Origin: Neophaeotheca triangularis | Taxonomy: Eukaryota | DNA: 64,000 nucleotides | Assembly (NCBI GenBank): GCA_054600435.1 | Contig: BAAIJX010000035.1 | Span: 1-64,000 of the forward strand | Direction: 5' to 3' | Shown: positions 1-37,793 of the stretch, one piece after another | How the letters are laid out: each line of letters starts with the position of its first letter | Numbering within the stretch: position 1 is the stretch's first letter | Position numbers and translations under genes: made by a program | The notes under the pieces: generated by a model | Seen by the model: only the letters and a program-made list of their open reading frames with translations | Told to the model about the DNA's origin: nothing | Database searches by the model: none

Positions 1-82
1 TTACCTTTAATTTGTGGGTTTTTTATTCAATTTTTTTTAAACACTCCCCAAAAACCCCACCAATTTCAAAAAAAAAAAAAAC

Positions 83-118
<36 letters not shown>

Positions 119-120
119 TT
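1..120. repeat. Low-complexity end: poly-T, poly-A and a ~33-nt poly-C run; probably low-quality contig-end sequence
   Basis: Homopolymer runs (A at ~68-81, C at ~86-118) with no coding signal. Confidence 0.7.
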
Positions 121-203
121 CTTCAGCAGCAAGTCAACTTAAAAAGCAAACTGTCCACCCCCCTTGACACCGCCACACTCCACCAGTCACGTACGACTCA
201 ACC

Positions 204-2947
204 CTACTTCGTCTTCTTCTTGTTAGCCGTAGACTCCGTCAGATTCTTCCTCTTCGCCGCCGGGACGGATGGTAAAGGAGCAGCCGCAGTAGCCTCCGTC
301 GTCTTTTTAGACGGAGCACGCTTCCTACCAGTCTGAGACCGCACCTCAACGTCCTCAAATTCTGCATTGCTCTCGATGGCATCTTAAGCTTCCGTGAGGG
401 TCATACTATGAACCCCTCGAAGGTGTTCAGTCTAGAGTCCGCGAGTGTTGTGGGTTTTGTCGCAGCCAGCTACAAAGCAGCTCTGCTGTACCCACTTCCT
501 CTTGGATATAGCGGGAATGTAGGGACCTATCTCGTTATTAGCAAGACCGTGTGAATACATCAGATGGTATTTCAGTGAGGAGTGGTTAGCGAAAAACGTC
601 CCGTGTTGGCAGCTAGGGAACATACAGGGAGTAGGGAAGCGTGACGAATAGACGGTAGAGACGTGATAACTCAAGGAGTCTGCCGTGTAGTAGATTTTGT
701 GTTAGTCACAACCGCCTTTGTCACAAGTCTTAGGGGTAAAGCTATGTTTACTTCTGATGTGGCCCTATAGATCGTGCGCTAGTCGAGATGTATCGGGTCC
801 TGGTGAAAAGGTGCATCCACTGTAAGGACAGGCGAAAGTAGTAGACCCTCCTGAGCTTAGTCTGCTAGCTCCTACTAGAAGCTGCTTGACCTTCTCTTCC
901 GTACAGTGCTCGGCGTGCGTACGAAGCACGTCTCGGTCTAAGGTGACAAAAGGGCACCCAGGAGTTGCGAGGCATGCATGCTACGTAGCCGTTAGAGAAT
1001 TGCGCGAACCGCCCTGGGTACAAGTTCGTTCGAGCAACTCGTCAGGTATAACTGCGTTGGGGTTTTTCGCGCAATGCTTGCCGAGATAGTAATAGCAGAT
1101 GACATTGTACTGCGCCCAGCTCGTCACGAAGGACTCGGGGCTAGCGGGACTACTGTTAGAATCATCTAGTAAGATCGCAGCTTCCTCGAGGTCAGAATCG
1201 GTCAGCATGGTGGCTGGCGTGTCAAAAGATTCGTCGTCATTTGGCTGATCCGAGTTTGGCATGTTGAAAGGGTGATCTTGTAAGAAGATCTGTGACTCGA
1301 GTTCGGAAGAAGCTTCATCAGGAACTTGCTAAGCTGCTGATTCGAGCTCCTCATGGTTCATGGTGGTTGGGTCCTGGACATTAGTAGAAGACATAGCTGT
1401 AGTCTTCTGTGACGGTGTGTTCGGGGTGTTGGGATCCTTTGCGGAAAGCGGACGACGAGGTCCGGCTAGGACAGCTACAGGTACTAGCGAAGGCTAGGCG
1501 AGAAGCTTGCTAGTGATACCCCGAGCTTCGGGTCCTGTCTGACCGGACGCAGTAGACGTAAACTGGACTTCTCTCCCTCGCGGCTCTTTTGCTAAAGTCG
1601 TCGCTCTGGCGTTGTAGAGCTCAAAGCTAGAGCCTCCTGCGTAGCGTTCTGTCGCACCAGACATGCGGCTAGCTTGCTTGTGCGAAATGCTTTGCCTGAC
1701 ATTGTCCGTAGCGAGGCCAGTCCCATCGGACAAGCGAGCAGGGAGGTGGGCTACATCGCGAGTAGCGCCGAGACGTAGGGCGTGACCGTACGCCCTATTA
1801 AGCATACCAGCAGCTAGCGCCATCTCCTTGATAGTCAGGAGGAGCTGCCCTGTTCCTGTCGGCTTATCCAGGTCACAACGGAGGGGGTAGGTTTTGAATG
1901 CTACAAGAACCGATTTCTCAGGGTAAGACCACACAATCTTGCGGTCAGATCGCTGAGTAGTCTGACTGAGTAGCTAGTCGAGGGTCGTCGCCTGGACGAG
2001 GGAATGACGGAGTGCGTGAATCAATAGCCAGGCGATAGGACACATGTGACTATGTTCGCCGCCGAGTAGCCGAAAGAAGCGGTACGTTTCTTCGTTAAGG
2101 TCATGTTTGCTACCCTTTTCGTAATGTATAGCGATGCGGGCGTAGAGGTTTTCGTATACCGGCTCAGCGTCATGGTCGAATGAAATCTCAATGTGACCCC
2201 ACTATAGGTATTCTTGACCCGTATACTTACGGGAGCGCGCAATGTCGCCAGTTCTCGCCTGTAACGCAGAGACCAGTACTATTAACAGGCATTTGGCAAC
2301 TGTCACATCAGGACTCAACATACCCTTCGCTATACCACGGTCGAGGTATGTCCTAACGAGGCGTGACAGTACTGCGAAACCGATCCAAGTCCTCTTTCTC
2401 CATGTCCCACGAGTAAGTCGCCCAGCTCTTGTCACTTGGTCTACCCAGACTCGAAGACGCCCCGAATCGTGTTCGGTCATCTTAAAGCCCTTCGCTAGAC
2501 CCCACTTGAAGATGCCGTATGCGATGAGGACTCGAATACCTTTGACAAGAGTCCCTACATTGGGGCCTGGCTTTCCGTCGGCTACGTCCATCTTGGCTGC
2601 TCTTAGTTAGCAGCTACGTCACGATTGACTGCACATGTCAAAAACTTACGCAACATTGACTCGAAGAACCTAATCATGTCGTTTCCCGTAAATGCCGTCT
2701 CAGGATCCTGCTTGAGAGTGTGGATCCGGTAGGCCTCAAATCTGTTTTTCCAAAGGCTCTGCTGGTAACGCGTGCTAGGAGCGCCCCACGCAAACTGCAA
2801 CTGGACGACAACCTTCTTCGATGAGATCCGGTCTCCCTCGGCTTGAGCAATGATACGGGCGATAGACTTTTCGGCCGTGTGCTAGTTCTCAATTGGTTCG
2901 GGTGGGTCTGAGAAGACGAGGTCGTCGCTGTCGTAGGGGTCCGCCAT
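204..2947 (-). pseudogene. RIP-inactivated tyrosine recombinase with five C-terminal C2H2/C2HC zinc fingers (~896 codons, one intron at 2597-2649)
   Basis: Track ORFs 2202-2591, 1494-1934, 981-1262 and 432-674 share one frame and join through ~10 in-frame TAG/TAA stops. YR catalytic motifs appear in order: R (ALQARTGDI, ~2254), HxxR (GHALRLGA, 1773-1784), H (SISH), Y (TERY, 1641-1643). A CPIxxLL motif is present. Fingers: CLATPGC..HAEHC, CPYSGC..HIRSKH, CDKGGC..YHVSTV, CMFPSC..HLMYSH, CFVAGC..HLRGVH. Confidence 0.8.
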
Positions 2948-3096
2948 TGTTGGTATTTCGTCCTGCGCGACGGGGTAGACAAAGGTCGTCTTCGTCTTCT
3001 TCGTCTCAGGCCTTGACGTTGACGACGCCGGTGGTGCATATTCCGAAGTCCTGTAGTCGGCTGCCTACTAGATACAAGGGGGAAGTAGCGAAAAGC

Positions 3097-3224
3097 CCAC
3101 CTTCCCCTCGACTGTCGTACGAGACGGAAGCGGCGATACCACCTTCCCCCTCGACTGTCATACTAGACGGAAGCGGCGATACCACCTTCCCCCTCGACTG
3201 TCATACTAGACGGAAGCGGCGATA
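3097..3224. repeat. Three tandem copies of a 42-43 bp unit (CCACCTTCCCCCTCGACTGTCATACTAGACGGAAGCGGCGATA)
   Basis: Copies at 3097-3138, 3139-3181 and 3182-3224, ~150 bp upstream of the YR start codon. Confidence 0.9.
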
Positions 3225-3874
3225 CATAGTATCAAATGTTGAAGCTACGTCCAGCTCGCTCACATAGTCCAGCGCCTACGAGCAGCCTAATAATACTCCT
3301 TTCCAGGTTGACGTCCGGCTAGTAGCCCATGCACCACCTGAAAAGTTCAATTGCCCGAGTCCTAACGGACGGGGGGCTCTCAAACACAGGATTGTTTTGA
3401 GTAGTCGGCATTTGCTTGCCAGTCGGGGCGGACGCGCTCGACGCGCAAGGTGTGGACAGCAACACAGCGACGGGAGTACCCGTAGCATCGCAATCTCAAG
3501 TCGAGACTCTCCAATTTCTGTCGCTGTTTTGATGTCATGCGGATGGCGTAAAGGGATGCGCTGGGCTCGCTACATTTTCAGCAGGCAAGTCATAAAATAT
3601 TTGACTGATGCGACTACCGGATTTATTGGTGCATAGCTCGTAGTGGTAGCGATAGCGGTAGTGGATAAGTGGGAAGGTAGGTAGGTGGTAGGCAGTAGGT
3701 ACCTACCTACGTATGTAGACGTAGACATACATGGATGTTTTGGGGATTGAGTGTTCTGGGACGACAACGACGATAAGCAGGGTCATACACGTGGCAGTCC
3801 TTATCAGCGTGGATAGTACGCGAGGGCCAGATCGGCAAAGCTACTCTAATAAATTAAGGTTGTGCGGACTTACC

Positions 3875-3982
3875 CCACCTAAGCCAAAAGCGGCGCTAGC
3901 GCGCCCTTTTGGCTTAGATGGAGTGCGTCCTATCCCGTGAATGTTCTCAGAACAGATACTACACTTGATCTAAGCCAAAAGG
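3875..3982. repeat. CTAAGCCAAAAG motif in three copies (forward, reverse, forward) forming inverted repeats
   Basis: CTAAGCCAAAAG at 3879-3890, CCTTTTGGCTTAGAT at 3905-3919, ATCTAAGCCAAAAGG at 3968-3982. Confidence 0.85.
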
Positions 3983-4643
3983 CAAAGAGAGCTAGAGAGA
4001 AGAAGAAGAAAGGAAGACGGAGGGAACTGGAAGAGCAGCTCAGTTTTGTGTCTGCGCAGTGGGCCTGTGCGCGACGGGAGTGACTCAGCAGCCGCGTCGG
4101 TGCGTGCCTCAGGCCACCCGTTGCCCAAACGCTGACCCTTGACGACTGCTGGAATTACCCAAAGAACCCACAAGGTCGGTGTTGTAGTCTTCGAGCAGAG
4201 GTAGTCACTACCTGTAGCAGCGAGGCACACATGTATAGAGCTTGAGCGAACTCTCCGGCGTGAAACCCAGCTGTCGTACCGGTGGTAGCTAGGCAGTCAT
4301 ATATTCGGGAATCAAGCGTGCCGTGACAGTCTCGTAGGGTCGTGGAAACTCTACCAAAGACAGTGCTTTGCAGGTCAAGCGCGTACTGGTGACGATGCCG
4401 ACGGCAATGGCAGTGTTTGCTTCTTGCGACCCACCAGTGCTCACTACTAATAGCTCGCCGGGTTTGACCCCTGAAGACCACTCTAATATAGACGACACCT
4501 CCAGAACATTACGAAGAGATCGTCGTGCTGCCTGTAGAACCCAGACAAACACACGCACCTGGCCAATTCGGCATGAGTCGACACCTTGATCCGGGCCGAG
4601 CATACATCCTCACGGGTCGCATGTGTTCAAGAGCGGCCAGTCT

Positions 4644-5723
4644 TTACTCACTGTCGTCGTCCTGTTGTACAAACGGCGCTTCGGCCGATCGCAGATGACC
4701 TTGATCATCACACTCCAAACCACAAGCACTCAGCACCGCCCACCTAATCTCATCTACCCCCAACTTCTCCTTCCTCCCTCGAACCTCCAGACTCTTCTCC
4801 GCGCTGCAGCACAGAATATCGCCCAAACCACCCCTGCCCCCCTGAGCCTCCGCCTCCCCGTCCAAAGTCTGCTTGACACCACTGCAGACCTCCCGTAAGC
4901 TCAACAAGCCATTCGACAGTTTCCGAGGACTCGGTTCCTTGGGTCCAGAATACAGCAGTTTGTCAGCCTTGCTCAACAGAACCGTATGCGCAATACCGCG
5001 CTGGCGAAGATGCGTCAAGAGCGATACATCGGAGCGTTTCAGACCATGCTCGGCGTCGACGAGAACAAACGTGCGCCGCAGCTGTTTGCGGTTCTCAAGG
5101 TACTTGAGGATTTCCGTCCCCCACTCTTCCCGACTGCCCCCTCCGTACCCCGGCATGTCTACCACGATGCATCCTCCTCTACCCATTCTTTTCCACGCGG
5201 CCACCTTCTCCCCGGACATGGGCGCCGCTCCCCAGTGCCCTTTACCCATCAGCCCGTAGCCGTTCATGGTTCGCGTTTTGCCGGGTTGCTTCGATACATG
5301 CGCCATTTTCTCGTTGCTAAGGCCGAAGAGCGCATTGAGTAATGATGATTTGCCAACGTTGGAGCGGCCGAGAAAGGCTACCTCTGGGTGGGGTGAGGCT
5401 ATGGGGCTGTCTCGAAAGGTCGCAGCGCTGAAGAGGATGCGAGGTTTCGAGGACTTGAAGAAGCGGGAACTGTACCTGAGTTGGGTATTGCTGGGCACGG
5501 AGGAAGTGTTGTATAGATTCAGGGTTGCGGGCATAAGGGTAAGGAGGGCTGGAGATGCCGCTTTGAACGTCGAGTTGATGCTGTCACTGGCATTTGGCAT
5601 GTGAGGGTCGTGTTGAAGCTCTCTTTGGAAGCCATCTGTGGTGAGAGTGCGGTAGTGCTGTAAAAGCGGTCTTCGAGTGTACAGTGCGAGACGTAGGACA
5701 GGAGGCAAGGCTAGGAGATCCAT
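4644..5723 (-). CDS. MRX8: EngB/YihA-family GTPase (Mrx8/GTPBP8-like, probably mitochondrial)
   Basis: PEVAFLGRSNVGKSSLLN (G1), PGKTR (G2), DMPGYG (G3), SKAD (G4); N-terminal extension resembles a targeting peptide. Confidence 0.85.
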   Translation of the reverse strand: MDLLALPPVLRLALYTRRPLLQHYRTLTTDGFQRELQHDPHMPNASDSINSTFKAASPALLTLMPATLNLYNTSSVPSNTQLRYSSRFFKSSKPRILFSAATFRDSPIASPHPEVAFLGRSNVGKSSLLNALFGLSNEKMAHVSKQPGKTRTMNGYGLMGKGHWGAAPMSGEKVAAWKRMGRGGCIVVDMPGYGGGSREEWGTEILKYLENRKQLRRTFVLVDAEHGLKRSDVSLLTHLRQRGIAHTVLLSKADKLLYSGPKEPSPRKLSNGLLSLREVCSGVKQTLDGEAEAQGGRGGLGDILCCSAEKSLEVRGRKEKLGVDEIRWAVLSACGLECDDQGHLRSAEAPFVQQDDDSE

Positions 5724-5994
5724 AGCTCTTTGATAGTTGTCGTGCTGTCTCTGCCGTAGCACGAAACGCTTGTGTGAATATCAGAGGATTCTTATGTTAG
5801 GTAGGATGCAGCCAGACTTGTAAAGACAAGTCCACCGACTAGTGTACAGGCCAGCGCGCCAATCGGAAGTTGGAAACACACATCCGAGATGCATCATCAA
5901 TCCAGCAACATCGTGGTCCCTTTCGCATCTATCATCTCCAACAAATTACGCTTTCCTCAAGAATCATAAAGAAATAAGCCGAGAAATAAGCACC

Positions 5995-6375
5995 ATGTCC
6001 GTAACGCCCCAAGTTCAGACGCAAATGCGCTCCCTCTACCGCCAATTCCTACGCGAACTCCCAAACCGACAACCGTCAATGCTGGCCAACCCATCGCCAA
6101 TCCAACAAAGCATCCGCGCAGACTTGACCACTTCCGCCTCCTCTTCCGCCCAAGGTTCAAAATCGGTACAACATCAAGTGGAGAAGCCCGTGCAATCACG
6201 ACTGCAGGAGGCGGAACAATTTGTTCAATACGTCAAGGCGCAGAGATTGTACGCCACGCTGCTCGAGCGGTACAATCCCGGTATGAACATGAACGAGGAG
6301 GAGAGGGTTCGGTTGACGGCGAGGAGGGTGGGTATGGATCTGCCTGAAGAGTGGGAGAACGGGAAGAAGCAATGA
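5995..6375 (+). CDS. FMC1: ATP synthase assembly factor Fmc1 (LYR family)
   Basis: RSLYRQFLREL and YATLLERYNPGMNMNEEERVRLTARRVGMDLP. Confidence 0.9.
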   Translation: MSVTPQVQTQMRSLYRQFLRELPNRQPSMLANPSPIQQSIRADLTTSASSSAQGSKSVQHQVEKPVQSRLQEAEQFVQYVKAQRLYATLLERYNPGMNMNEEERVRLTARRVGMDLPEEWENGKKQ

Positions 6376-8945
6376 GCAGCAGTAAACCATGTCGAAGCCT
6401 TGCGACGATACGCCGGGGTGAATGCTGTGCCGCCGGCTCCGTGGCGTTTTGGTGGAGATACAAGGCGTCTGAAGATGGCACTGCATGTTATGAGAAAGGA
6501 GAACCTAAATGGATTCAGGATGGGAGGTGTATGACTGTCGCATGGGAGGGGAGGCTACGGGGGAGAAACGTTCAACCCTGTACTTGGTTCAACCATTCTG
6601 GAAGCTGGGGGGAATGTCCGATTCGAAATTGAGGGAGCTGATCAAGGAAGGAAGGAAGGAAGGAAGGAAGAAACCACGGTTTCGCAGAACATGAAAGGTG
6701 GAAAGTCCTTGTGCCATGGCCATTGGTAAAAACAAGCGTCGGACTTGCCACGCAGATAACTCAGCTAGTCGCCATTGAAGTGCCTACAAAGCATTAGAAC
6801 TGAGATGGGAGTATCGGCGGCTGTTTGGCCCAGGCCCGTAGCCGCTGGCGGCTAGCAATACTGCTACTACGCGCTGTACTTTCAATAGATGGCAAAGCTT
6901 CTGGCGGCGCAATCATGAAACGCAAGTGCAAGGCAGAGGTGCAGCGAAACAGCATCTCCCGAGCCGGTACTGTCATCGTCGGGAGCTGTAAGGCTGTGAC
7001 CTGATGTGATGTTTGAGTGGGTGTTATTTGCACGGGGCCAGATGGTCTTCACCAGGAAGCGGGTAAGCCCGTGCTCATAGCCACAGCAGCCACCTACGCA
7101 GCCACAGTGTCCAGCACCTGTATTAGGTATCATCGACAACCTGGAAGCTACCTTGGATACCGTACCGTATCTAACCTACCATGGCGCCGAATGCAAACGA
7201 GAAGCGTGTGGCAAGTGGTGGACCACGCGAGTTCTTCTCATGTCCAGCATCCATCAACAACCTAAACCAAGGCGTGGCCTCGACCAGGTACAAGCAGCTC
7301 GGTAGGTCAAGGGATGCGTTCTGCTGACGATGCTGATGTTGTCTCACTTCCCCTTTGGTGCAGCGATGCATCCGCGCCAACTGACGTACAAAAGTCATTT
7401 GCCACACTGAGCGGGCGACACAAGTCAGGGCAGCATGTATGTATGTATATACTGTATGTATGGAAGGATTATTGAGAGAAACGCAGACTTTTGCAGGCAA
7501 GCAAGCCCCTTGACAGGGGGTCAATCTTCATTCTTTGAATGGATGCCAGGAAGCAGGAAACGCCAGTAGTGCCAGCGCACCTTGCAGCGGCGCATTCTCC
7601 GACGAGCAGATGGGGTGATGGTCGTCGTCGTCGGGCATGCAGGTGGGTGGGCCGGCTGGCTGGCTGGCACGGGATTGCAGAGGGATGGCTTGGGGCATTC
7701 GAAACAGCTGCAGCTGATGAGTGACCGTGTCTATGATAATAATGATACAATACATAATACCGCTGTGAATCTTAGCTAGACGGAGAAGGCAAAGATAGTA
7801 GTACTAGTACTGCTGAAACGGCGATATGCGCGCAATAACATGTGTTTCACCTATCGCAGGCCGTTAGGCAAAAAGCGTCCCATCCACCAGTCAGCTCGGT
7901 CGTTGGCGATGGCTGGCGCCAACTGGAGGGCAAAGGCAGCTCGAAGATTGACTGGCAGCCAACCAAGCCAGCCCCACCACCGACTTCAGCTACATACAGT
8001 ACATTTTATTATTATTGTACATGCCTCTTCAGCGGTACTACTAGTCGACTAGGCCACTGCGCGACACTGCCTTGCCTCCTCTCCACCTCCCCGGCAAAGG
8101 CCAAAGGGGAGGCATGGGTATGGGTATGGGTATGGGTATGCGAGTAGTATTAAGTATTAAGAATGACTGCACTGCCTCCTGACACTACTCTACCAACCTC
8201 ATCCAGCATTAACTCGATTGAATCGATACAACCACCACCACCACCAACTGACTACCCATAATATCCCCCCATCACTCTCGTTGCATACCCTACCGCTAGC
8301 CAGGAATCACGCATCACGCATCACGCCGCATTCTGCATCAACCCTCGTCAGGACCAGGTCCGACGCCCTTGTACCGCGCCAACACCAATCTTTGTCCACG
8401 AGTGCATCCATCTGCACTGTGTCCAACTACGCCCGCTGATTCGCATCCATACCACCCCACCACCCTGTCGCACTTGTCCGCTGGTCGGAGAGTCTTCCAA
8501 AAGCTCCTTGTTTCCCACCTGTCTCATCGACAGGAGAAAAACGAAAAACGAAAAACCGTCTCCACTTGCCAGCGACTTATCGTCTCTTCTCGACGCCCCG
8601 ACGAAGAATATATCGACGAAATTTACGACATCGCTACATCTAGATTCCATCTACTAATCTTGGATATTTCCGGTACTGCCAGGTAGCGGACCGACTATTG
8701 TTCTAATTGCTATTGTCATACTGTCCCATCGCCTCATTTTTCAAGCGACACCTTGCTGCCTATTGTTGGACTGCTGCTATTGTCGACCGAGGAGATTCAA
8801 TCAATCCCCTATTGTTGGCTTGATCAATACGAAGGCCAGCTACTTACACGCCGCCATCTCGAAAGACCTTAGATACTCTTCTCATCACCGCAAAGCAACA
8901 GCTTGGCCAACAACCACCGGACCCATTTTAATACCGACTCTGACC

Positions 8946-10064
8946 ATGGCCTATACCGTCCCATCAACTTCCGCCCAGAACGCTGCGGCACTCGATCACT
9001 TCATCTACCTGCCCGTCTCCTACGACATGATCTCCTACCTTGCACAAATGGCAGGCCAAGTCATTCGTTGCGAAGACCAGTCCACCTTCAACAAGAATCT
9101 TCCCCCAACTCCGCCAGCCACACCACCACACTACTCTTCCGGGTCCTACTTCGAGCCAGCTTTGCCGTCCTTGGAACTCTTCATCAGCACATTGGTCGAA
9201 AAGTCACATGTGCAGGTGCCGACCCTCATGACTTCCCTGGTCTACCTCAGCAGGCTGCAGGAGCGGCTACCACCCATTGCCAAGGGCATGAGGTGTACCA
9301 CGCACCGCATCTTCCTAGCCTCGCTCATCCTAGCAGCCAAGAACCTCAACGACTCCTCCCCAAAGAACAAACACTGGGCTCGCTACACCTCCGTTACCGG
9401 GTTCGAAAACTTTGGCTTCAGCTTAACAGAAGTCAACCTGATGGAGAAGCAGCTTCTCGGCTTGCTGAACTGGGACCTGAGAGTGACCGAAAACGATCTC
9501 TACTTCCACCTCGAACCATTCCTGGCGCCTATTCGAGCTTGGCAAGCTAGGCGCGCTGAACACCAGAGGCAACAGCAAGTACTCGAGGAGCAACACCAGC
9601 AGAGGCTGCGGTACGAGCTGGAAAGGTCTCACGTGTCTCAGTATGGCTCGCAGCCCAAGCAAACATATGCTACAACGAAACCAGGTAGCTCCAGAGGAGT
9701 GTCGTCGTCGCGATCATCATCCAGGACCCCTTCGCTCTCACCGCCTACCCGCAGTCAATCATCAGCTTCCTACTCCTCGATGGACTCTGCATCTTCGTCA
9801 CCATCCAGCATTGCTTCTTCGTACAACGACGCCGTGTGCGAAGATTTGCCCGTCCAGATCCAGCAGTACGATAGCCACACGGTGCCTTCGGTCGTTCATA
9901 TCCGCCCGCAGAAGCAACCCCAAGTCCAGACGCTGCCACTCAACCAGCCCGAGCAGCAGCAGCCGACCAAAAGGTCAAAGACCGGCGGCAACATCTTCAG
10001 TCGCTTTCTGCCTACCATGAGTCGACCTTCAATGGCAAACTTGAACATGGTCACTGGTTACTAG
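8946..10064 (+). CDS. PCL1: Pho85 cyclin, Pcl1/Pcl2 subfamily
   Basis: Cyclin box: [69 protein letters not shown]. Confidence 0.9.
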
Positions 10065-10760
10065 GAAGTTTGGACCATTTGGGATGGTGTTGGATGAAGG
10101 CGGTGGTGGATTGGTGCCACGACAGCACTTGGTCTCCGGAAGGCATATGGGTATCACGGAAAGCCTTTTCTCGAGCGATTTGGCGATGAGCTTAGCTGGA
10201 CTCAGCTTGTCCAAGGCATTCTTGGGTTGTCTTGAGCATTATACCATTGCATTGCGACGGCGCTTGGGCTGGTAGATATTAGCCGTTTCGAGCTAGCTTT
10301 TGAAACAAGCTGGCACTTGCATCAAATTCCTTCTCCCTTGTCAAGTCCATCCTACCAAGCCCTTAAGGTACTCTGAGATCATCGGAATCCTCCTATTGCT
10401 GGCGGCTTTTGGATGAAGAAGCTCACCCAAACGCGGCTGAGCTGAGTGAGGATCCCGGCTGGCGAATCTCGCTCGCCCGTTCACTTCGACTTCACCTGAT
10501 TACTTCTCAGAGAACATCACTCTCCACCTTGCCATTGACCCTTGCAACTTTCCTTGACCATTCATAGCATACAAAAGTCGTCCTGCTCGTCGTCGCAATT
10601 GCAAAAGTGTCATTTGGTGACGTCAATGACTTCTCGTTTCATGCTCTTCGGAGCTTTTCTTCGTTTGTGATGAATACCATCACGTTGTGTTACCATACCA
10701 TCGACCCGTCGTTTGTCTTGCATCTGCAATATTCTCCTACGACATCCCATTCGCAACACC

Positions 10761-12194
10761 ATGCACGTGGATTTGACCTATCACTATTTGACCCACCATA
10801 TCGTGCCAGGTCCGCAGAGCCTATCCTATTTTGCCACGCACATTCTACTGCCATTCGCCCTGTTGATCCCTCGCACGTTGCTATCAAGATGGCAGAGCAT
10901 CTTGCTATTCCTTCCCATTATGACCGCAGCAACGGCGCATGCGTGGTGGATTATGAATGGTGTCGACGTGATCAGTGTCAACACGCTACTGGGAGCTTTT
11001 CTCCTCCTCGCCTTCAGAGATCCATGGAAGGATTTTAGATTAGTTTCAAGACAGGACAAAGGCCTGAATGAAGCTGTGGAAGCGCCGACGGGACTGCCTG
11101 TAATCACCAGCGATAATAGCTCCATAAGCGAGCAGACCACATTACTAGACTCCCCCAACGACAACAGCACCGACACCCCCGGCGCCACCGTCAACCCTCC
11201 TCGAACCGACCAACAACCATACCCTTCCGACCTCCGCTCCCGCCTGCCCTGGGTCAGCACCCTCATCATCTCCATCCGCCTCAACAACTGGAAAATCAAC
11301 AACCCGTCCCACGACAACACCCAACCCCCACCCCCAGCCTCCCCCAACCGCAAAACCTACACCCTAAACGCCCTAACCTCCTTGGCCCGAGGCTACCTCC
11401 TCCTCGACCTAACAACCGCCTACACCAACCACGACGCCTACTTCACCGACCCGGCCATCCCAATCCACGCGCCGCTGCCCATTGCCGCCCTCTCGCCCCT
11501 CCCGCCCCACCTTGTCCGCACCATGCTCGTGGGCGCGCAAGCCTGGGCCCTCATCAGCCAGATGTTCTACCTGCCGTGCCTGCTCGCAGTCGCTCTGAAC
11601 GCCCTCAACCTGCTGCGCGACGACTACTCGCCGCACCTCTGGCCGAGCTACTTTGGCTCGCCCAGAGCCATCTTCTTGCACGGCGTGCGCGGTTTCTGGG
11701 GCGCGTATTGGCATCAGACGATGCGCCTTTCCGTCACGGGGCCGGGCTATTGGTTAGCCGACGCAATGGGTCTGCGCGGGAGAGGCTTCTGGAGGTATGC
11801 CATTGTTACTACGTCGGCTTTTGGGTTTAGCGGCTTGGTGCATATGGGCTTAGTGCCGCCGGAGCCGCTGCATGCTACAATGCCTGTGAATGCGATACGG
11901 CTGTGTGTTGCTGGGTTCTTTTGGGTGCAGGTTTTGGCAGTGTTGGTTGAGGTTGTTGTTGCGAAGGGGTTCGTCATGGCTATGGGGCTTTCTACTTTCC
12001 AGACGGGAAACGGTCTCGGGATTAGGATGCTGCTGAATGGGCTGTGGGTTGTTGCGTGGTTCAGCGTGTCTATAATTTTGCTGGCTGAGGCAGGTAGGCA
12101 ACTGGGGTATTGGAGGGTTTGGGTTGTACCTGTGAGTCTGTGGCAAGGATTCAGAGGGGAAGGATGGATAGCGTGGCCATTTTTGCAAGGCTAG
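10761..12194 (+). CDS. Membrane-bound O-acyltransferase (MBOAT_2 / wax synthase / Tri7-like)
   Basis: Multi-TM protein with WPSYFGSP, GVRGFWGAYWHQTMR and AFGFSGLVHMG. Confidence 0.85.
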   Translation: MHVDLTYHYLTHHIVPGPQSLSYFATHILLPFALLIPRTLLSRWQSILLFLPIMTAATAHAWWIMNGVDVISVNTLLGAFLLLAFRDPWKDFRLVSRQDKGLNEAVEAPTGLPVITSDNSSISEQTTLLDSPNDNSTDTPGATVNPPRTDQQPYPSDLRSRLPWVSTLIISIRLNNWKINNPSHDNTQPPPPASPNRKTYTLNALTSLARGYLLLDLTTAYTNHDAYFTDPAIPIHAPLPIAALSPLPPHLVRTMLVGAQAWALISQMFYLPCLLAVALNALNLLRDDYSPHLWPSYFGSPRAIFLHGVRGFWGAYWHQTMRLSVTGPGYWLADAMGLRGRGFWRYAIVTTSAFGFSGLVHMGLVPPEPLHATMPVNAIRLCVAGFFWVQVLAVLVEVVVAKGFVMAMGLSTFQTGNGLGIRMLLNGLWVVAWFSVSIILLAEAGRQLGYWRVWVVPVSLWQGFRGEGWIAWPFLQG

Positions 12195-12290
12195 ATAGAA
12201 TACAGCTGCGAGTGGCTCTCCAATGTCCATCGCCATCACTCGGGCTGGCGTTGTTATTCGAACATTGACCTCCTCAGCCGATACCGTGCC

Positions 12291-12479
12291 TTATTTGATG
12301 GTACCGCTATCCGCCGGCTTCTGCTTCGTGCCCTTTTTCTCCTTCTCACCGGCATTGGTGCTGTTCCCTGCACCTCCGTTGTTCGCACTAGAGCCGACAG
12401 CTGATTTGGTCTGTTGAGCCTGATTTTGGGAGCGGCGCTTGTAGCGAAGGTCGTCGACCCAGTCGAGGAAGGAGACCAT
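12291..12479 (-). CDS. Putative small (62 aa) hydrophilic orphan protein
   Basis: Strong start context (CACAATGG), protein-like composition, and it lies in a gap between two genes. Confidence 0.45.
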   Translation of the reverse strand: MVSFLDWVDDLRYKRRSQNQAQQTKSAVGSSANNGGAGNSTNAGEKEKKGTKQKPADSGTIK

Positions 12480-13006
12480 TGTGATCGGCTAGAATGGCTT
12501 GCGGAGGTGTAGGCTGTGGTCCGCGGCAAGTGTGTATTGCGTTTACGTGGAAAAGGCTGTGGCACATTAGTGGAATGCCTCTTCTCCTCGTTTGATGTCG
12601 GTCGTACTCGTATGTAATAATGAGATTGCTGAGGATTGTGAAATCGAACACTCGCTGCAGCGTTCAAGATGACGACTTATTGATCCGTTCGCGTGGCGTC
12701 TTTTGAGTTTGCGGGATCAAGCGCGCGCGTATGTAGATCTTGAGTGGTCCAGCTAGGATCTGGATGGCTCGTCGCAAAGAATTCTATCCTGCACCGAGCA
12801 AGGCTAATAGACCTGGCGGAAATGAGCTCGCATAAGTATTGCCCTCCGGGGGCTGCTTAAGCGTTATGACCAAGCTCGAAGACAACTGCTACTAAGCAGC
12901 ATAAGCAGTAGCTTCGAGGCTTATGTGACCCCAGGAAGAGGCTCCGGCTATCTGTTTTAGGCATTCGAGCACGGCCAGCGGCCCAGCGAGGTGGATGTTG
13001 GTCCGT

Positions 13007-15077: not shown

Positions 15078-18000
15078 CTACTCGTACTGAATCTCCTCAT
15101 CATCCCTCACAGCAAGATCCTCCCCTTCTCCTTCTTCGCCCTCACTCCCATCGCCACCCTCATCAACAACAGCAACCTCATTTTGTCCGTTCGCCTTATC
15201 TTCTTCCTCCACGTCAGCAGCCGCCAAGGAGACATCTGCGAGCTTGCTCCTGGTGCGACGCAGACTCGTAGCGCCCACAGTGCTGGGACTAGCAGCGTGT
15301 CGAGCGCTCGTGGCTCTGCGAGCCGGTGTAACGTAGGCACCGCCGTAAGTGCTGCGCCTGTTGCCCCCTCTTCCTGGTCGGCCGGGTCGACGCTTTGCAG
15401 CTGTCATGCCAGGGATGGGGGGAAAGATCTCGAAACGTATCGGTGGTATATGTCCGTTGGATTCTGGCAGGGAAGTGCTGTGAGCGGATTTTGTTGGAGA
15501 GGCACTGCGGGTCCGGACACGATAAGTGCCGTTTGGGGTCTTACGAGGGGAGCGTCGACTTGGCGAGACGGCGGTGGGATCCTTGTCATCGGTCAAAGAA
15601 GGCTTTGCTGTCAGAGCTGCCGGTGTTTGGTCTGGGACGGGTGCCTTTGGCGACAACGTGTTTTGTCGCGCGTCTTCTGTAAAGGGCTGGGCAGCAGCTT
15701 CTTGACTTTCTGCAACAGCATCTGCCGTCTCTTTCAGCGCCTGCTGTACTCCTTCTTCGGGCTGATCTGGTAGCTCGATCGCTTCCTCACGCTGCGCGAC
15801 CGTTTGTATAGGCTGGTTTGCTTCCTCGCCCATGGTGAAGAAATTGGAAGGCCGGCCCATGACATAGGGCTGCCAGCACAGACGATCAGAATCAAGCTTG
15901 ATGTGCGCCTTCTTCTCGTGTTTCTCGATGTACTCCTTCATGTAATCATAGTCGAGTCGTAGAGCGTAAGTGTAGGTCAAAGGATCGCGAACGAGAAATC
16001 GAAGCGCCTCGAGCGTAGAGACAATGTCGTCAGGGGTCATGCCGGTGTCCTTAGCAATGCGGGCAATCGAGAGCGACTGATTCTCGTTGGCCGCAGTCTC
16101 GTTGCCTTTGTATTGCAACAGCATTTCGCACAGAACACTTCGCCAGTACGAGCGGTATGATACAAGGCCCATGTCAGACAACGGCTTTTCTGGGGATCCA
16201 GTACGGCCCTCGACTTTAGTCAGCAGGTATGAGAACTCGATGAGTACTCGTCCGAAACCTCGACGCATATGCACAGGCAGGACCAAGATGCATGACACAT
16301 TGTTGCCGGGGCTGTTCAATGCGATATCGGTGGCGTCGCCAGCAGAATCTGCACCACCATGGGCGGAGGCGTCTACTTCACCATCGACGGAGTCGTAGGC
16401 ATTGGACGGTGCTGGTGGACCGCAACTACGTTTTTCTTTGGAGAAGTAACCAACGAAGTGACATCCAAACTCATCGTTCTCCGTCATGATGTAGAACAAG
16501 AAGGGTTCTACATCGTAATAGAGCGTCTTAGATCCGAGGAAGAGCTTTGCGAGCAGGCAGAGGTTCTGGCAGTATAATGGATTCTGTCGTCCGTCGACTT
16601 CGAAGAAAGACAGCGTAGTCTCAGCGCCAGTTTCAGGATTTGTGACCTGATTACGATAGATCTCATCGCCGGGGGGATGTTTGGCCGAGCACTTGAGCTT
16701 ATGCCTCCAGGCGACGTAGTCTGAGTTCATGTACTTCAAACAGAACTCGCAAATATAGAGGTGCTTGTTTCGGCTGTACTCTTCTGGATAGGGTGCAGCA
16801 TGCCATGTGTCAATTTCATAACCACCAAAATTGATGCACTTGATCTTGCTGGCTGGTCCGGATGCCTTGGGTCGAGCGGCAGTCTCAGTGCTGTTGGCAG
16901 CAAGCTTGTCTTTCCAGTTCTTTTCCGCCGTCTCACGCGCAGATTGGAACGCTCGTCGATCTGCGTCCTGTGGGTACGTTCGGGCAGTGTCAGCTTCAGC
17001 TTCTGTGAGAATGCCGCCGTACGGCTTGCCCTTGAGCTCATCGGTCTCTTTGTCAGGGAAAGCGTAGAAAGGGTTGGAGTAGATGGAAGTTTGTACTGCG
17101 GGAAAATGTTGAGGTTCTTCTTCCTCGGCTGTAGTCGCAGCACGATTGTTGCGCAAGCGACGAAGACGGTCTCGCTCGCGCCGGCGCTGCTTCCTCTCTG
17201 CGTTGCGCACTATGTCGTCCAGTTGGGCAACGGTGACTGGGAATGCCATAATGGCACTGCGAGGTTCTTCGCTTCTAGAAACTATCCTGGCGGCCTTCTT
17301 GCGTACTTTCAGATGACGCTGCGGCCGACCAGCGCGCGACTTCGGAGAGCCACCGTCGTCGGTACCATCTAGGCCGGCGGCTATTGCGTCGCTCTCGTTG
17401 CCGTCGGCGGTAGGCTCGCGTTCATCCTCGTCGAACTCCGTTCTTCGACGTTTGCGGTCGGGGGCGCGTGGGAGCTCGTCGGTCTCGTTTGAAGGCGATT
17501 TGCGCTTCTTTCTAAGCGAACGCGAACCGTCCATCGGATCTTCGTGGAGAATCAGCGTGTTGAAAACGGAATGCGAATCTGCCTTGATGCCCCCTCTTGC
17601 TGCGGGGAGTAGGTCTCGAGCCATTTTGGGTGCAGACGAACGACGTCGTGAAGACAAAGCCTCTGGAATATGTTTGAAGTCCTCCTCCAAGCCATGAGCA
17701 ACGCAGTCTTTGCAGCGCCAACGCGCAGTATCTGGTGAAGGTGTTAGTATACATTATATCCTCGTGATATGGGCGCGATTATTTGATAGGGGTTTCGTAT
17801 AGACGTACCTTCTTCGGAAGCTAGCGAGCCTGCATCTCTGGCGCATTGCCGATGGGCTGTGAAACGAAAGTCAGCGTGTCGGACCCTGAATCGTACGTCT
17901 TCGCATACTGCTCGCTTCTCGAAGCTTGCTTCCTTCATCTCTCTTACAACAATTTAGGATGGGGAGAAAGACTTACCAAAATCTCCGCAAACGGCACATG

Positions 18001-27579: not shown

Positions 27580-28700
27580 GACCTGGCCATATGCGATGGC
27601 GCACGCGAAGGGAAGCCTCTATCAGTCAACATTGTTTTGGCCAACCTTCGACGTCCCAGGTCCGCGTCCTTGTCACGCCTCGTTTTGCTCCCCAAAGCCT
27701 CCACTAGGAAAACCACGGCATTCTGGCGGGCACCGCGTGACGGGTTGCGAAAGGCGTACGCGAAGGGAAGCCTCTATCAGTCAACATTGTTTTGGCCTAC
27801 CTTCGGCGTCCCGTGTAACTTCCTCGATCTGCGCCCCGTTGAGGACGAAGACAGGGTGGCGTCTTGGCCATATGCGACGGTGGAGGGGTCTCCTCTTCGA
27901 CCGGTTCTGCGTCCTTGACGCGCCCTGTTGTTCCGAAGGTACCTTTTGGCGGGTTTTGGCCTCGGAGTCATCTGCTGACCGGCATTCATGCTGGTCACTT
28001 TGCTCTGGCTGGCGGCAACCTCTTCCTTTCACCTTCAGAGCAGGGTGACGCTCTCCTCTTGCTGGGGATGTGGACAGGCTTACGCCCCTTCGCGCCCACT
28101 TGAGGGGTTGTAACTCCCCTAGTTGACGTCCCTCGTCGTTGCTTGTTGTCTTCGCTGCAAAACAGAGCAGGGTCATGCTCTACTCTTGGGGTTGTGAATG
28201 AGCTTGTGCTCTTCCCTTCTCACTTGAGCGGCTGTAACTCCCCTAGTCGACGTCCCTCGTCGTTGCTCAACGTCCCAGGAGAGCCAGGCAGAGTAGGGTC
28301 GCGTCCTCTTGCTGGGAACGTGGACAGGCTTACGCCCCTTCGCACCCGCCTGAGTCGCTGCAACTCCCCTAGTCGAGGTCCCTCCTCGTTACTCCCCAAA
28401 GCCCCAATTGGAAGACCACGGCATTCTGGCGGGAAATCGGGTGAAGGGAGGTTGCGAACGGCGTACGGTTGGGAAGCCTCTATCAGTCAACGTTGTTTTG
28501 GCCTACCTTCTGTCCTCAGTAGCTGCCCTGAGCCACGCCCCGTTGGCCTACCGGAGCGTTCCATGAACACTCGGGAAGCCTTTACAGGACGAAAACAGGT
28601 CGACAGCGTTAAAACAGGTTGAGTTGGCCACAACTTCATCGCACCCTGTTGTTCCGAAGGTCCAATTGGCCTTTGTCCTCGGAGTCACTGGCTTGCTCGG
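27580..28700. repeat. Mosaic of dispersed 20-120 bp direct-repeat modules
   Basis: GGGAAGCCTCTATCAGTCAAC.TTGTTTTGGCC x3, ACCACGGCATTCTGGCGGG x2, GTGGACAGGCTTACGCCCCTTCGC x2, AACTCCCCTAGT x3, CCCTGTTGTTCCGAAGGT x2. Confidence 0.85.
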
Positions 28701-29662
28701 CACCTCTGGGTGTCGGACGACGAGTGCTCCGGCCGGCGGCGGTCTCTCCGCCTTCGCAATCCCCCCGTCGCCTCGAGGCATGCAGACTGCCCGAACGTCT
28801 GCGGAGAGCGCGGGCTGCCTTAGTGCCCGCCAATGCTAACATTCTGCAGGACTCTGACGACGGGACAGCCCTTCAACGCAGGGTCAGAGTGGAACCTTCA
28901 GCCCTTTTGGGTCTGGAGAGCTAAGACTGTCCCCTTTAGATTTTTTGCCATCCATCCAGTCCAGCGAATAAATGAGCGCACAACTGGTGCGGAAGGAGGG
29001 GAGGGAAAGGGAAGAATAGAGAAAGGGAGCGATATACGTGGGTCTTGATATTGGTATATTGGGAAGGAAGGCTTGGATAGCTGGTGGCCTAGGTGGGGCT
29101 TGAGGATAAAGAGAACATACATAACAGAAACCAACCTTTGTCTGCTCCATCAAATCTCGTACCGTCTCAACCTTTCCTGCCACCTCTTCACCTCCGACGA
29201 AGCTGCCGTGACAATGCCCAGAGGCCTCTGTGCCATGAAATGGTAAACCGTCAAAGGTAGCGATCAGGTTGAGAGAGGAAATGGAGATACGCACCTCTTG
29301 ACAATTGCAAACGGGCTACCAATGCTACTATTCCTACTGGTACAGCACTTCCATGCAATAATGCCCCCGAGCGTGCCCAATACCGATGCAGAGAGAAAGA
29401 GAAAGGATGGTGTGAAGTCCGAAAATCCGCCCCCAACTCTTTCCCCGCTAGCTCCATCACGTGCTCCATGAACCGATGCTCGCGTTGCAAAAGCCGACCG
29501 TCGGGTAGCAAACGTAGGTCTCGACAAGAGATAAGCAATAATAAGAAAGACACTTTTTGCCCCCTGATAATAACATCACTGAAGCAGCTCCAAAAACCCC
29601 AAAACTCCTTCGCTAATGTTGACGTTGTATGTATATCGAACACTCTCTTCCTTGGATCGTTA

Positions 29663-31554: not shown

Positions 31555-33051
31555 CAGACCAATGCACCTGCTTGACCAGCACGCCTCGTTGCAGGGTATC
31601 GGCGAGACGGCTCGGGTTCAGCTTGTGTTTGTGGTGCGGCCGGACGCGGAGTTGGAAGCTGCCACGCAAATGCTGCAAGTATCCCTGGTTTCACGTCGGA
31701 AGAATTGTGTGGTCGTAGTCCCGTGGTCGCGAATCGAAGAGATGCGAGGGTATACTTTGAGCGAGATGAGGTTTGCGTATCCTAGCACCCAGACAGATAT
31801 AGCTGCGCTCTCCGCGATCCTGGCAAACCTTCAGGCAGGATCTCCAAGTCGATGAGGCCGCGAGTTCACAGGTGTGCCAAATGGAGGTCGCAAAGTGGTA
31901 AGCAATGGCAATCTTATGCTTCGGGATGCTGACAATCTGTGATCGGTCTATTGGAAGCTATAGAGCTCCTCAGTCTCATCGCATCAAGATTGGTCGTGGT
32001 GTGGTTTCGTTCCGTGAGATCGTTCAAGTCGCTTCAGCAATACACCCGGATCGATGCGCCTGATCTATCGTGGTCATCGGCCAAGAACAAAGGTGATGCT
32101 GTGGTCCTTGTGGAGAGCTGGGCAGCAGATAATAAACTGAAGTGACCCTACCTCCCGGGTCCTTCGGATATCAACGGGCCCTCGCCGCGATCCGGTAGCA
32201 GGGTAAGATGATGGACGTGCAATCCAGCAGCCGGGCGCAGTTCGTGGGACCGGCGAGTCTGGCGGTACTGGTGATGGGGCTGAGCGGGCCGTGGCTTATT
32301 GGGAAGTCTGTCGACGGAACAGAGACGGCCTTTGGAAAGGGCAGGAGCTTGAACGTCTTCGAGGATGGAGAGCCAGCTACTGTCCGAGAGGAAAGCCTTG
32401 GCCTGATGGAGGGGCCAGGCTCGCGGAGAGGAAGGCAGTAGTAGATTATGATCCGGATGGCGAAAGACGATGAACACCCAACACCTGTTCGCGTGGCCGC
32501 GAAGTGGGTAATGTCAGGCGTTCCCGGTACTGCTATTGCTGAGTATCGAAGCGTGATAGTAGCGTCGTTCGATGGGAGAGTGGTTACGGCATGCGGTTGG
32601 TGGGTGATGGGCTGAAGCTCCCGTTCGCTACCAGATTTTGACAAGGGCCAATAGCAATTCGGCTTTTTCCCTGGGAAAATGGCGGCGAATTGACGATGAT
32701 TTGATGATTTGGATGAACACGTGAAGAAGGGAGAAGGCTCGGTCACCAGCAGGCCGGGCTTGTCGATGATAGTCGAATGCCAGAGTGAAGGCTAGAAGGA
32801 AGGAGGGTGCAATAGGACGAAGTGATTGGCGCGAGTAAGGGAAGGCGGCGTGTGGGCTCCCGAGGAAAGGAAGCGGTACTGGTTGCTGCTAAATGCTACA
32901 AGCGGAGGGACATCCCGAGTGCTTGTTCCTGCCTATAGCGCGATTGGCAGGTACAGGTACTTTGTACAGTACCTAGGGTTGATGACAGAAGGTTAAGGTC
33001 GGTAAGGTTGTCTGTCACCAACGAACGGGAGCAGTCGAAAGCCAGTAAGAC

Positions 33052-33132
33052 GTCAGGTCAGGTCAGGTCAGGACTCGGATACGATCAACGAGTCAGTCAA
33101 GTCAGGTCAGGTCAACTGTCAGGTCAGGTCAG
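33052..33132. repeat. Interrupted (GGTCA)n microsatellite in the vosA upstream region
   Basis: Three clusters of GTCAG/GGTCA pentamers. Confidence 0.7.
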
Positions 33133-36100: not shown

Positions 36101-37793
36101 CAATGGTCCTTCATGCATGAGACATTGTCTAAATGCTGGCTGGCAGCTGCGACGACCCTTTTGTCGAGGTACACCGTAGTACACCCCAGTGTTCTACAGC
36201 ATGTCATGCCATGTCCACGTGCGCTGCGTGCCAACGCAGGGTAGGTAACGTCGTGAAACTCGTCACAAATCCGCTCTTGTAGGCCAGAAGACTGAAGTAC
36301 GCAAGTGGAGAGTATGTCCAGCTTGTGATGAGGCATCCTGGCGCACATTCACCCGTGCACATATGCGTGCGGCTCTTCCACTTGGCACAACCTCCAAAAG
36401 AGGCCCCACATGCACGTGGGTTTTGACAGCCCTCGCTTTACCATGCGCCAGCTGTATTACATGTCTGTAGGAACCGAGTTTTCAAGTCTTGAGCCACAGG
36501 CTCTCCTGTTGCGTCGTATCTTCAACGGCATCCCTCCTACGTAGGTGGTAACCTGGGCGTCTGCGAATATCCGTAAGCTTGCGGCGGCGCAATCACATCG
36601 CCCTTCTGATGGCTGAATCGAAAAAAGCCGGCAACGGAATCGTGCCTCCTATTCGGCTCCTTCGAACCGCTCGGCTGCACCACATGAGAAGGAGATTGCC
36701 ACGTGGTTTCCGTTCTCTTGAGAACCTGGTGTCACTACTAGTCGCTTGCGTCTGTCGTACGCGTTTCGGGCAAGGACACAACTCGTAGCAAGGGCATCCT
36801 CAACGACAGCGTCGATCTCACTCAACAAGCAGGGACGCCGTATTTTGGGCTCGGCAGTGCACACTGACATAGCAGGCGAGCGAATTGTAACAAGTTCGAT
36901 TGACAGGTGTCAGCGGTACTTGCTGCATCTTTCCATCTTTGAGGTTTCGCCAGCACGAGTGTTGAGTAGAGAGCTTGGTTGGAGCTGAGTAAAGAGGCCA
37001 CGATGGATCATGATCTTCTCGTAAATCACCGCTGCTTACCTTGAAGAGAACCCAGCCACTGTTTGGTCGGCGATGGTGGGATTTAGACTTGCGCAGAGCC
37101 TTGTCAAAAAGCAGGTGCATGTATGTCTAGAGCTGAGGGTCGGAATTACCTACACAACAGTACTGTACATGGGTAGTACCTTTTACTCTCTTTCCAAGAC
37201 CGTTTATCGATAGGGCATCCATCTCGACCACAAGTGCGGAACAAAAGCCGATGAACACTTGGCCAAGTGAACCTAGGTAGCTTTTGGTAGTTCCTCTCCA
37301 TGTTAGGTAGTAGTAGTAGTAGTTAGGTGGACTCTATCCCTCGGAGTCGGAAGTGGTTGATTTTTGGGTTCAATCTTGCATTGTCGGCGAGCTCCCGTTC
37401 TCACGTTCATAAAGCTACGCATAGCGTATTCGCCACATCGCTACATAGAGGTACCTACTACTATGTAGTAAGTAGGGTAGAATGTCAAAGTAGCGCTAAA
37501 AGTTGTAGACAACTCACGAGTGTGATAAAAAGGTAATCGATAATTAATGATGACACTACTGATATGATAGGTATGCACTATGCAGCCATGACAGCTCTTG
37601 TAAGAAATCTAAGTTTGCCCCACTCCAGCTCACTCATCCTTCCATTACCAATACTAGTCGATACTACTCTACTACTCTCTACCCAAACACGGCGACTGTA
37701 CGACTGACGACCCAAGCCGATCCGATAGTTATACCCTGCTCCCCGCCCCGACCATCACCGTACAACGGCCCCCCCGAGTCGAATCAAACAAAC

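Follow-up and report, generated by a model that had tools for sequence, protein, structure and literature searches.

CryptonF DNA transposons, which reportedly go back to Goodwin et al. 2003, have terminal direct repeats of 4-6 bp. They are described in Kojima and Jurka 2011 (PMC3212892). Another group of fungal elements whose gene for a tyrosine recombinase (YR) is known is that of the Starships, in which this gene is called the captain. Passages of PMC11162782, in which 1222 reference Starship YRs were used together with CryptonF sequences, give 11 published Starship YR families and a median captain length of 812 amino acids (aa), and the captain of Enterprise, Kirc, is described in part of PMC8092012 as containing DUF3435, a central zinc finger and a chromodomain. 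We analyzed positions 1 to 64,000 of contig BAAIJX010000035.1 (GenBank assembly GCA_054600435.1) of Neophaeotheca triangularis; this whole stretch is referred to as the window. Its minus strand contains, at positions 204-2947, what is probably a defunct recombinase gene copy from a YR mobile element, which belongs to the DUF3435 lineage and carries an array of five zinc fingers, and whose inactivation is most likely due to repeat-induced point mutation (RIP). Relatives of the encoded protein are denoted by P numbers, and the loci of relatives by L numbers.

The two exons of the gene (Table 1) join to a sequence of 2691 nt, corresponding to 896 codons followed by a terminal TAG. The spliced product reads ...FFESML-P-KMDV..., which agrees with the annotated splice products P0005 (...IIPKMVV) and P0008 (...MLPKMDL), and the product of exon 1 is 53% identical to residues 1-99 of P0003 (tblastn). 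When P0005 was aligned with four independent loci using tblastn, the alignments were split at an equivalent protein position (residue ~101 in L004/L005, and ~75-86 in L003/L006), leaving gaps of 35-65 nt; therefore, the intron is old and common to the relatives. The recombinase frame is interrupted by ten in-frame stops, eight TAG and two TAA, and is thereby divided into 11 pieces, versus 38 and 55 internal stops in the two alternative frames of that strand. Because of this difference, and because the window protein matches P0018 with an E value of 5e-155 over 821 aa (BLASTP), the frame is far beyond chance. A preliminary description, based on the DNA letters, had predicted a single frame of ~896 codons with one GT-AG intron. 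Its length and intron were right, but the number of breaks was underestimated when it spoke of five short open reading frames (ORFs), a number that would imply about four stops.

The reconstructed protein of the window copy contains the catalytic residues of tyrosine recombinases, R, K, H-x-x-R, H/W and Y, in the order of the superfamily, and the corresponding columns are invariant or near-invariant in family alignments of 14, 21 and 113 members. The sequence HALR is present twice, at residues 293 and 371, and the copy at 293 is conserved, though its spacing is not catalytic. The HALR at 371 is the catalytic HxxR because of its spacing to H405 and Y418, and because of its register against Cre and lambda Int: in the hhalign alignments, HSARVGAARD...W...Y of Cre and HELR...GH of lambda Int are located opposite HALRLGAARD...GH...Y of the family. 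The acidic linker and the five fingers that had been reported together with this motif order are also present in the 896-codon frame. The columns of the finger ligands are near-invariant in the family alignment; in the window copy, finger 3 has Y as its last zinc ligand, a position occupied by H in 11 of 12 relatives. Since the family profile matches the known multi-finger arrays of ZNF410 (E 4.1e-25), GLI (5.2e-21), TFIIIA and ZIC3 (E range 4e-25 to 2e-17), the fingers are genuine C2H2-type fingers. Single-finger Pfam models mostly remained below their cut-offs for the fingers of the family, and a PDB sequence search with the single window protein gave weak finger matches only. Together, the catalytic set and the profile matches of the array support the proposal that this is a YR gene with a five-finger array. 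The basic tail at the C-terminus may have a nuclear-localisation-like role.

To which lineage the recombinase belongs was analyzed with Pfam profiles, for which the gathering cut-offs are 25.8 bits (DUF3435, PF11917) and 27.1 bits (Phage_integrase, PF00589). DUF3435 was the commonest Pfam match among the relatives (7 of 21 members). In a set of 47 relatives it was detected at E<=0.1 in 16, three of which reach the cut-off while 13 are below it. The relatives that reach the cut-off are P0110 (26.0 bits), P0018 (30.4 bits), P0056 (26.6 bits) and P0092 (40.2 bits, E 2.7e-10). Every DUF3435 match is in one register and covers only profile positions ~25-210 of 418, from the first Arg to HxxR. The link between the window copy and DUF3435 is transitive, because the window protein aligns with P0018, as mentioned above, and with P0092 (E 2e-42). 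Weak Phage_integrase matches, found in 1 of 8 and 3 of 47 proteins, are also in one register (profile ~77-166), and weak matches in a consistent register were obtained to archaeal XerA (NCBIfam) and to a phage integrase PHROG, each in 1 of 21 members. A language-model atlas, which provides a lead rather than a test, placed two DUF3435 clusters on top for residues 1-470 of P0005 (0.98 and 0.97), followed by NDC10_II, Phage_integrase, ALOG/integrase and DUF3504. For the uninterrupted ORF of 159 aa of the window, the ten best named matches in this atlas, equally a lead, were all of the YR clan (NDC10_II, Phage_integrase, DUF3504 and DUF3435). The recombinase family sits at the edge of Pfam DUF3435, the YR domain of Starship captains. 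The previously suggested affinity to the DUF3435 type holds for the four relatives at or above the cut-off, the window copy itself being without a match.

Pfam scans of the window pieces and of 62 relatives did not reveal GCR1_C, reverse transcriptase (RT), RNase H or chromodomain sequences, and for this reason DIRS/Ngaro elements and CryptonF are unlikely. It had already been argued from the letters that the lack of RT and RNase H speaks against DIRS/Ngaro, and this argument now extends to the relatives. In DIRS/Ngaro retroelements, RT and RNase H (and methyltransferase) ORFs are found next to the YR. The gene could in principle be what is left of such a retroelement, with the RT/RNase H part outside the window, because DIRS and Ngaro elements encode YRs and only 203 bp are available beyond the stop codon. 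However, RT and RNase H were also not found in the upstream 900 bp or in the flanking ORFs of L001, L003 and L004, and the closest Pfam family is DUF3435 and not the Phage_integrase model that, according to a passage of PMC13465315, is matched by DIRS YRs. A retroelement origin is therefore hardly credible.

RIP acts on duplicated DNA, and its CpA>TpA changes create TAG and TAA nonsense codons. All ten stops in the window copy are either TAG or TAA. The window copy differs from its relatives at 39 conserved columns, and 28 of these differences correspond to a single base change: 17 are C>T/G>A, versus one A>G, and seven are in a CpA>TpA context. The invariant residues that were lost include the zinc ligand H653 (H653Y) as well as P232S, A216T, A250T and P538L (P0001 numbering). 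The observed/expected ratio of TpA is 0.98 in the gene (204-2947) and 1.21 in the region 2948-3854, and values of 0.76, 0.66 and 0.70 were obtained for 3996-4643, the MRX8-like gene and the rest of the window, respectively. Among 17 overlapping windows of 500 bp with start positions 1-4001, 13 have a composite RIP index of >=0.28, and the index reaches 0.3 in 4.3% of the windows past 5 kb. The window copy thus shows the C>T/G>A bias, the TpA excess and the TAG/TAA stops that characterize RIP, which is the most likely cause of its death. A boundary of the RIP block near 4500, initially derived from the 500-bp composite index, was revised, as the segment-wise dinucleotide ratios put the boundary nearer to the gene for U2 small nuclear RNA (snRNA; Table 1). 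Other patches with a positive composite RIP index are located at 28001-28750, 32751-34750 and 37001-37750. The stretch at 32.9-37.1 kb contains no ORF >140 aa and no Pfam match, and may be another decayed repeat.

The same stops could be read in another way, namely that the gene is still used, its TAG/TAA codons being overcome either by readthrough or by mRNA editing (A-to-I, turning UAG into UGG). In line with this, eight of the ten stops are TAG, all six catalytic residues are intact, and stop-codon editing has been reported, in the part of PMC8092012 on Kirc, for transcripts of this Enterprise captain in Podospora. However, an editing event would restore W, whereas in the relatives the stops mostly face Q, D/E, T or P (alignment by eye; P635 by column analysis). 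Moreover, two of the stops are TAA, and the five invariant residues listed above have been lost as well. We consider it very improbable that the gene is still expressed in this way.

A word-based search resulted in 13 relatives of 562-1021 aa, with E values from 1e-133 to 7.5e-53, none of which has a precomputed Pfam domain. The number of representative clusters obtained in an exhaustive profile search was 2821 at E<=1e-3, 1395 at E<=1e-10 and 511 at E<=1e-30; many of the listed matches are fragments, and as the finger array is part of the family profile, some finger proteins in the weaker tiers may be unrelated. The distribution over hosts is scattered. The named hosts are Lipomyces chichibuensis and seven Dothideomycete species: Alternaria arborescens (three strains), Hortaea werneckii, Friedmanniomyces endolithicus, Vermiconidia calcicola, Elsinoe australis, Zasmidium cellare and Saxophila tyrrhenica. 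Intact copies are present in the genomes of A. arborescens, Z. cellare and H. werneckii. In databases the relatives are named "hypothetical protein", "C2H2-type domain-containing protein", "AZF1" or "predicted transcriptional regulator". The literature that was covered consisted of full-text searches and of passages of PMC3212892, PMC11162782, PMC8092012, PMC13465315, PMC13486527 and bioRxiv 10.1101/2025.11.13.688278, and in these we encountered no fusion of a YR with an array of five C2H2 fingers, the nearest architecture being that of Kirc of Enterprise; members of the family may nevertheless be included in the supplementary tables of YRs in PMC11162782. The idea that the family is poorly described agrees with these searches, and fungi contain a large and apparently undescribed fusion family in which a tyrosine recombinase is joined to five zinc fingers. 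The window gene is a relic of a known kind, the gene of a DUF3435-lineage YR element, and the unusual part of it is the five-finger array.

Several features of the family point to past movement or duplication. One 90% cluster includes five distinct full-length variants of 805 aa on contigs of 2.9-3.6 kb, and Hortaea strain KC361 contains at least two loci. L003/L006 contains another pseudogene copy, which coincides with a GC island (0.48-0.51 inside DNA of 0.40-0.45) that covers the gene only. L004 and L005 have 3312 bp in common with 12 differences, all of them transitions, 11 of which are within 160 bp of a sharp boundary. This boundary is located 1.49 kb upstream of the ATG, and beyond it the contigs are unrelated. 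Two relatives have an unusual architecture. P0173 (Hortaea werneckii KC361_g9166) is fused in its annotation to a DDE_1 transposase domain, probably as the result of a nested transposon, and P0040 of Saxophila tyrrhenica (1949 aa) has double the usual length, with no Pfam family in its extra half.

Other results weigh against a dead mobile YR gene in the window. The window protein itself has no match in Pfam, NCBIfam or PHROGs, so that the profile hidden Markov model search proposed in the preliminary description succeeded with the relatives (DUF3435) and failed with the window protein. The cut-off of Phage_integrase was never reached (best score 14.6 versus 27.1 bits), the hhalign probabilities of the 113-member profile against single sequences were low (9.4% for Cre and 3.4% for lambda Int), and a PDB sequence search with a profile of the YR part only found no solved structure. 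As to mobility, no second recombinase copy was found within the 64-kb window. The gene in L004/L005 has no match after residue ~331; it is not an intact element, and because of this the duplication need not be the result of self-transposition. Three Alternaria arborescens strains each contain, on large contigs, a single intact copy that is near-identical between them, an arrangement that would be compatible with a host gene as well. As to RIP, the GC content of the relic is still ~52%; this value and the retention of all six catalytic residues indicate that the damage, if it was caused by RIP, was light, and a simple decay bias toward C>T would produce comparable figures.

The Alternaria copies lead to the possibility that the window contains a decayed host gene, i.e. 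a domesticated, non-mobile zinc-finger regulator derived from a recombinase, whose function was lost in this lineage. The regulator-like names of the relatives and the conserved position of the intron would fit such a gene, and domesticated YRs are known, examples in PMC3212892 being Ndc10/Cbf2, Gcr1 and DUF3504 genes. However, passages of the same paper describe domesticated YRs as mostly lacking the catalytic set, which is (near-)invariant in the present family. A host gene would also not be expected to show such a scattered host range, so many pseudogenes and fragments, near-identical variants or a repeat with a sharp boundary, and the mutation pattern fits RIP, a process directed at repeated sequences. 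Domestication followed by loss is an improbable explanation of the locus, and we retain that of a dead gene from a YR mobile element.

Table 1. Features of the recombinase gene and its surroundings (positions in the window; codon and residue numbers refer to the 896-codon frame)
Feature	Position	Strand	Remarks
Recombinase-gene downstream edge	1-203		Contig apparently ends 203 bp beyond the stop codon, in poly-A, poly-C and low-complexity sequence
Exon 1	2650..2947	-	Codons 1-99 plus 1 nt; N-terminal part of putative core-binding domain; in-frame TAG at codon 22
Intron	2597..2649	-	53 nt, GT-AG; GTAAGT donor, CTAAC branch site, CAG acceptor
Exon 2	204..2596	-	Codons 100-896; terminal TAG at 204-206; nine in-frame stops (TAG at codons 231, 307, 467, 522, 638, 710 and 821; TAA at codons 731 and 837)
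Catalytic tyrosine-recombinase core	1632..2258	-	R214, K260/K263, H371-x-x-R374, H405 and Y418 all retained in the window copy
ARTGD (R214)	2258-2244	-	Catalytic motif
EKGSK (K260/K263)	2120-2106	-	Catalytic motif
HALR (H371/R374)	1784-1773	-	Catalytic HxxR
SISHK (H405)	1691-1677	-	Catalytic motif
ERYAGG (Y418)	1649-1632	-	Putative nucleophile motif
Acidic linker	1125..1337	-	Probably disordered; 17 D/E and 0 K/R in 70 aa (residues 521-590); poorly aligned among relatives
Five-finger array	408..974	-	One C2HC and four C2H2 fingers; stops interrupt two fingers
Individual fingers	Residues 641-664 (C2HC), 689-717, 724-749, 757-782, 806-829
Basic C-terminal tail	207..314	-	...AAKRKN...ANKKKTK; comparable K/R-rich tails in relatives
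RIP-like composition block	204..3854		Likely minimum extent of the once-repeated element; TpA enrichment
43-bp unit, three tandem copies	3097..3225		150-280 bp upstream of the ATG; repeat scan
U2 spliceosomal snRNA gene	3855-3995	-	Rfam RF00004, 55.3 bits versus gathering score 46, full model 1-192; near-consensus 5' end
Housekeeping genes	from 4644		MMR_HSR1 GTPase (MRX8 of the preliminary description), LYR protein, cyclin, MBOAT protein, PP-loop ATPase, MYST acetyltransferase

The U2 snRNA gene is present on the same strand as the recombinase gene, 908 bp upstream of its ATG and between the relic and the MRX8-like gene, and is probably a host gene delimiting the element on its 5' side. Since the U2 gene appears undamaged and the RIP-like composition declines at this point, the element's 5' terminus is most likely located at 2948-3854. 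The preliminary description had placed a possible empty site next to MRX8. An MRX8-like gene is indeed nearby, but as the U2 gene intervenes the site needs to be revised. No convincing terminal repeats were detected in the repeat scan of the window, which did show three-arm inverted repeats in the region of the U2 gene. A sequencing run of the same organism (X2) contains 31% of the sampled words of window positions 1-9000, a share to which we attach no weight. The region 2948-4700 has nothing in common with the upstream regions of L001-L006, and its ORFs have no Pfam family. The 43-bp tandem repeats are candidates for a promoter element or for protein-binding sites; L001 and L002 have other short tandem repeats upstream of the ATG, without sequence likeness to the 43-bp unit. 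Screening of L001-L005 for small-RNA genes next to the relatives gave no Rfam match (gathering score or E<=0.1), and the adjacency to U2 is therefore a single case. No tRNA gene was found at 1-8000 of the window.

Two palindromes upstream of the gene, GTAGGTACCTAC at 3695-3706, inside an AGGT-rich run (3675-3701), and AGGTAG-TCA-CTACCT at 4199-4213, recall the CTACCT/AGGTAG target of Enterprise. The CTACCT/AGGTAG hexamers at 3680-3708 and 4199-4213 were considered as element ends and dropped, as such hexamers are scattered elsewhere and in other loci. At the other end, positions 1-120 contain, besides a stretch of poly-T/A, the runs A14 and C34, and resemble a contig-end or polishing artefact rather than a telomere repeat. 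In the housekeeping region, the MYST acetyltransferase (15078-17753, minus strand) is 64-69% identical to proteins of Meristemomyces, Oleoguttula, Vermiconidia and Baudoinia, and 95% identical to a Logan protein; 69% is the highest value for any named species. From these identities we take the host to be a Dothideomycete near Teratosphaeriaceae.

This arrangement raises the question of whether the gene is a true Starship captain, in which case it would belong to a giant element whose cargo is located to the left of the window start, the assembly having broken inside a repeated or RIP-mutated element. The recombinase is of the DUF3435 type. Its gene is oriented toward the window edge and away from the host genes, and no more than 908 bp separate its ATG from the likely 5' boundary at U2; according to passages of PMC11162782, captains occupy the 5' ends of their elements. 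Further points in its favour are the zinc-finger domain that the Enterprise captain Kirc also has (PMC8092012, in part), the poly-C and low-complexity sequence with which the window opens and which is typical of a contig end, and the HET-domain gene and fungal transcription factor that come after the relic in L003. On the other hand, cargo, direct repeats and terminal inverted repeats were not observed, the matches to the DUF3435 model are confined to its first half, and the window copy and most relatives are below the cut-off. In addition, the GC-rich island of L003 does not extend beyond the gene, many members are found on contigs of 3-5.5 kb, and at least one YR family of the Starship superfamily (Family 11) is listed in PMC11162782, as far as its passages go, without a known cargo element. 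A captain of a giant element is therefore possible but on balance doubtful, and we keep to a dead recombinase gene of a DUF3435-lineage element in the wider sense.

As for the sequences next to other members, the metagenome contig L003 contains, at 10793-12916 and downstream of its recombinase relic, a HET-domain gene that is split by an in-frame stop, followed by a Fungal_trans_2 regulator and a DUF7702 gene. In L001, a perfect tandem repeat of two 56-bp units (6867-6980) is located downstream of a near-intact family member. It is followed by two ORFs of considerable length (569 and 593 aa; region 6888-10258), neither of which has a Pfam family.

If intact members of the family are active, the recombinase core would synapse the ends of the element and would cleave them by means of Tyr418, together with R214, K260, H371, R374 and H405. 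A circle would then be excised and integrated at a short matching site, as has been proposed for Cryptons and Starships. The finger array might recognize specific sequences, either at the ends of the element or at the target; the targeting role proposed for it in the preliminary description is a conjecture. The element in the window would have been inserted just downstream of the U2 snRNA gene, with its gene reading toward the window edge. Voyager targets 5S-rDNA. A speculative extension, which we regard as rather unlikely, is that the family represents distinct, compact and cargo-less YR transposons between Cryptons and Starships, whose five fingers direct integration to defined sites, here just downstream of U2, echoing Voyager. 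The protein would then be a natural "zinc-finger tyrosine recombinase".

The window copy is inert and affects nothing nearby, and its value is that of a pointer to the family: hundreds of diverged fungal proteins couple a YR of the DUF3435 lineage, with conserved catalytic set, to a polydactyl C2H2 array, and the named ones have no functional name. If intact members are active and if the fingers set the integration site, the family would be a natural model of protein-guided, site-specific YR insertion in eukaryotes. It would then also be a candidate link between the small Cryptons and the giant Starships. In genome annotation, genes of this type should be treated as transposon genes and masked rather than named "C2H2 transcription factors".

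Compared with known systems, the window family is similar to the Starship captains, such as HhpA of Hephaestus and Kirc of Enterprise, in that these are fungal YRs of ~800-1000 aa for which DUF3435 is the best Pfam family, and in that the window gene points inward from a nearby 5' boundary. It differs from them in its C-terminal array of five C2H2/C2HC fingers, in having no chromodomain, and in that the DUF3435 profile is matched over ~25-210 of 418 positions only, with most members below the cut-off. With CryptonF it has in common that it is a fungal DNA element which encodes a YR only and no RT, whose gene contains introns, which shows no obvious terminal inverted repeats, and which is possibly compact (few kb). 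However, CryptonF proteins have a GCR1_C DNA-binding domain, as described in passages of PMC3212892, instead of which the window family has the C2H2 array. The catalytic residues R, K, HxxR, H/W and Y are in the same order as in Cre, XerC/D and lambda Int, and the H-x-x-R-(L/V)-G-A-A-R-D of the family aligns with HSARVGAARD of Cre, after which H/W and Y are in register. The likeness to these recombinases is nevertheless below significance, and the window family has much longer spacers, an intron and the finger array. Finally, the array resembles those of ZNF410, GLI, TFIIIA and ZIC3 in that it consists of tandem fingers with C-x4-5-C...H-x3-4-H spacing, but it is fused to a recombinase, its first finger is C2HC, and its inter-finger linkers are long and atypical.

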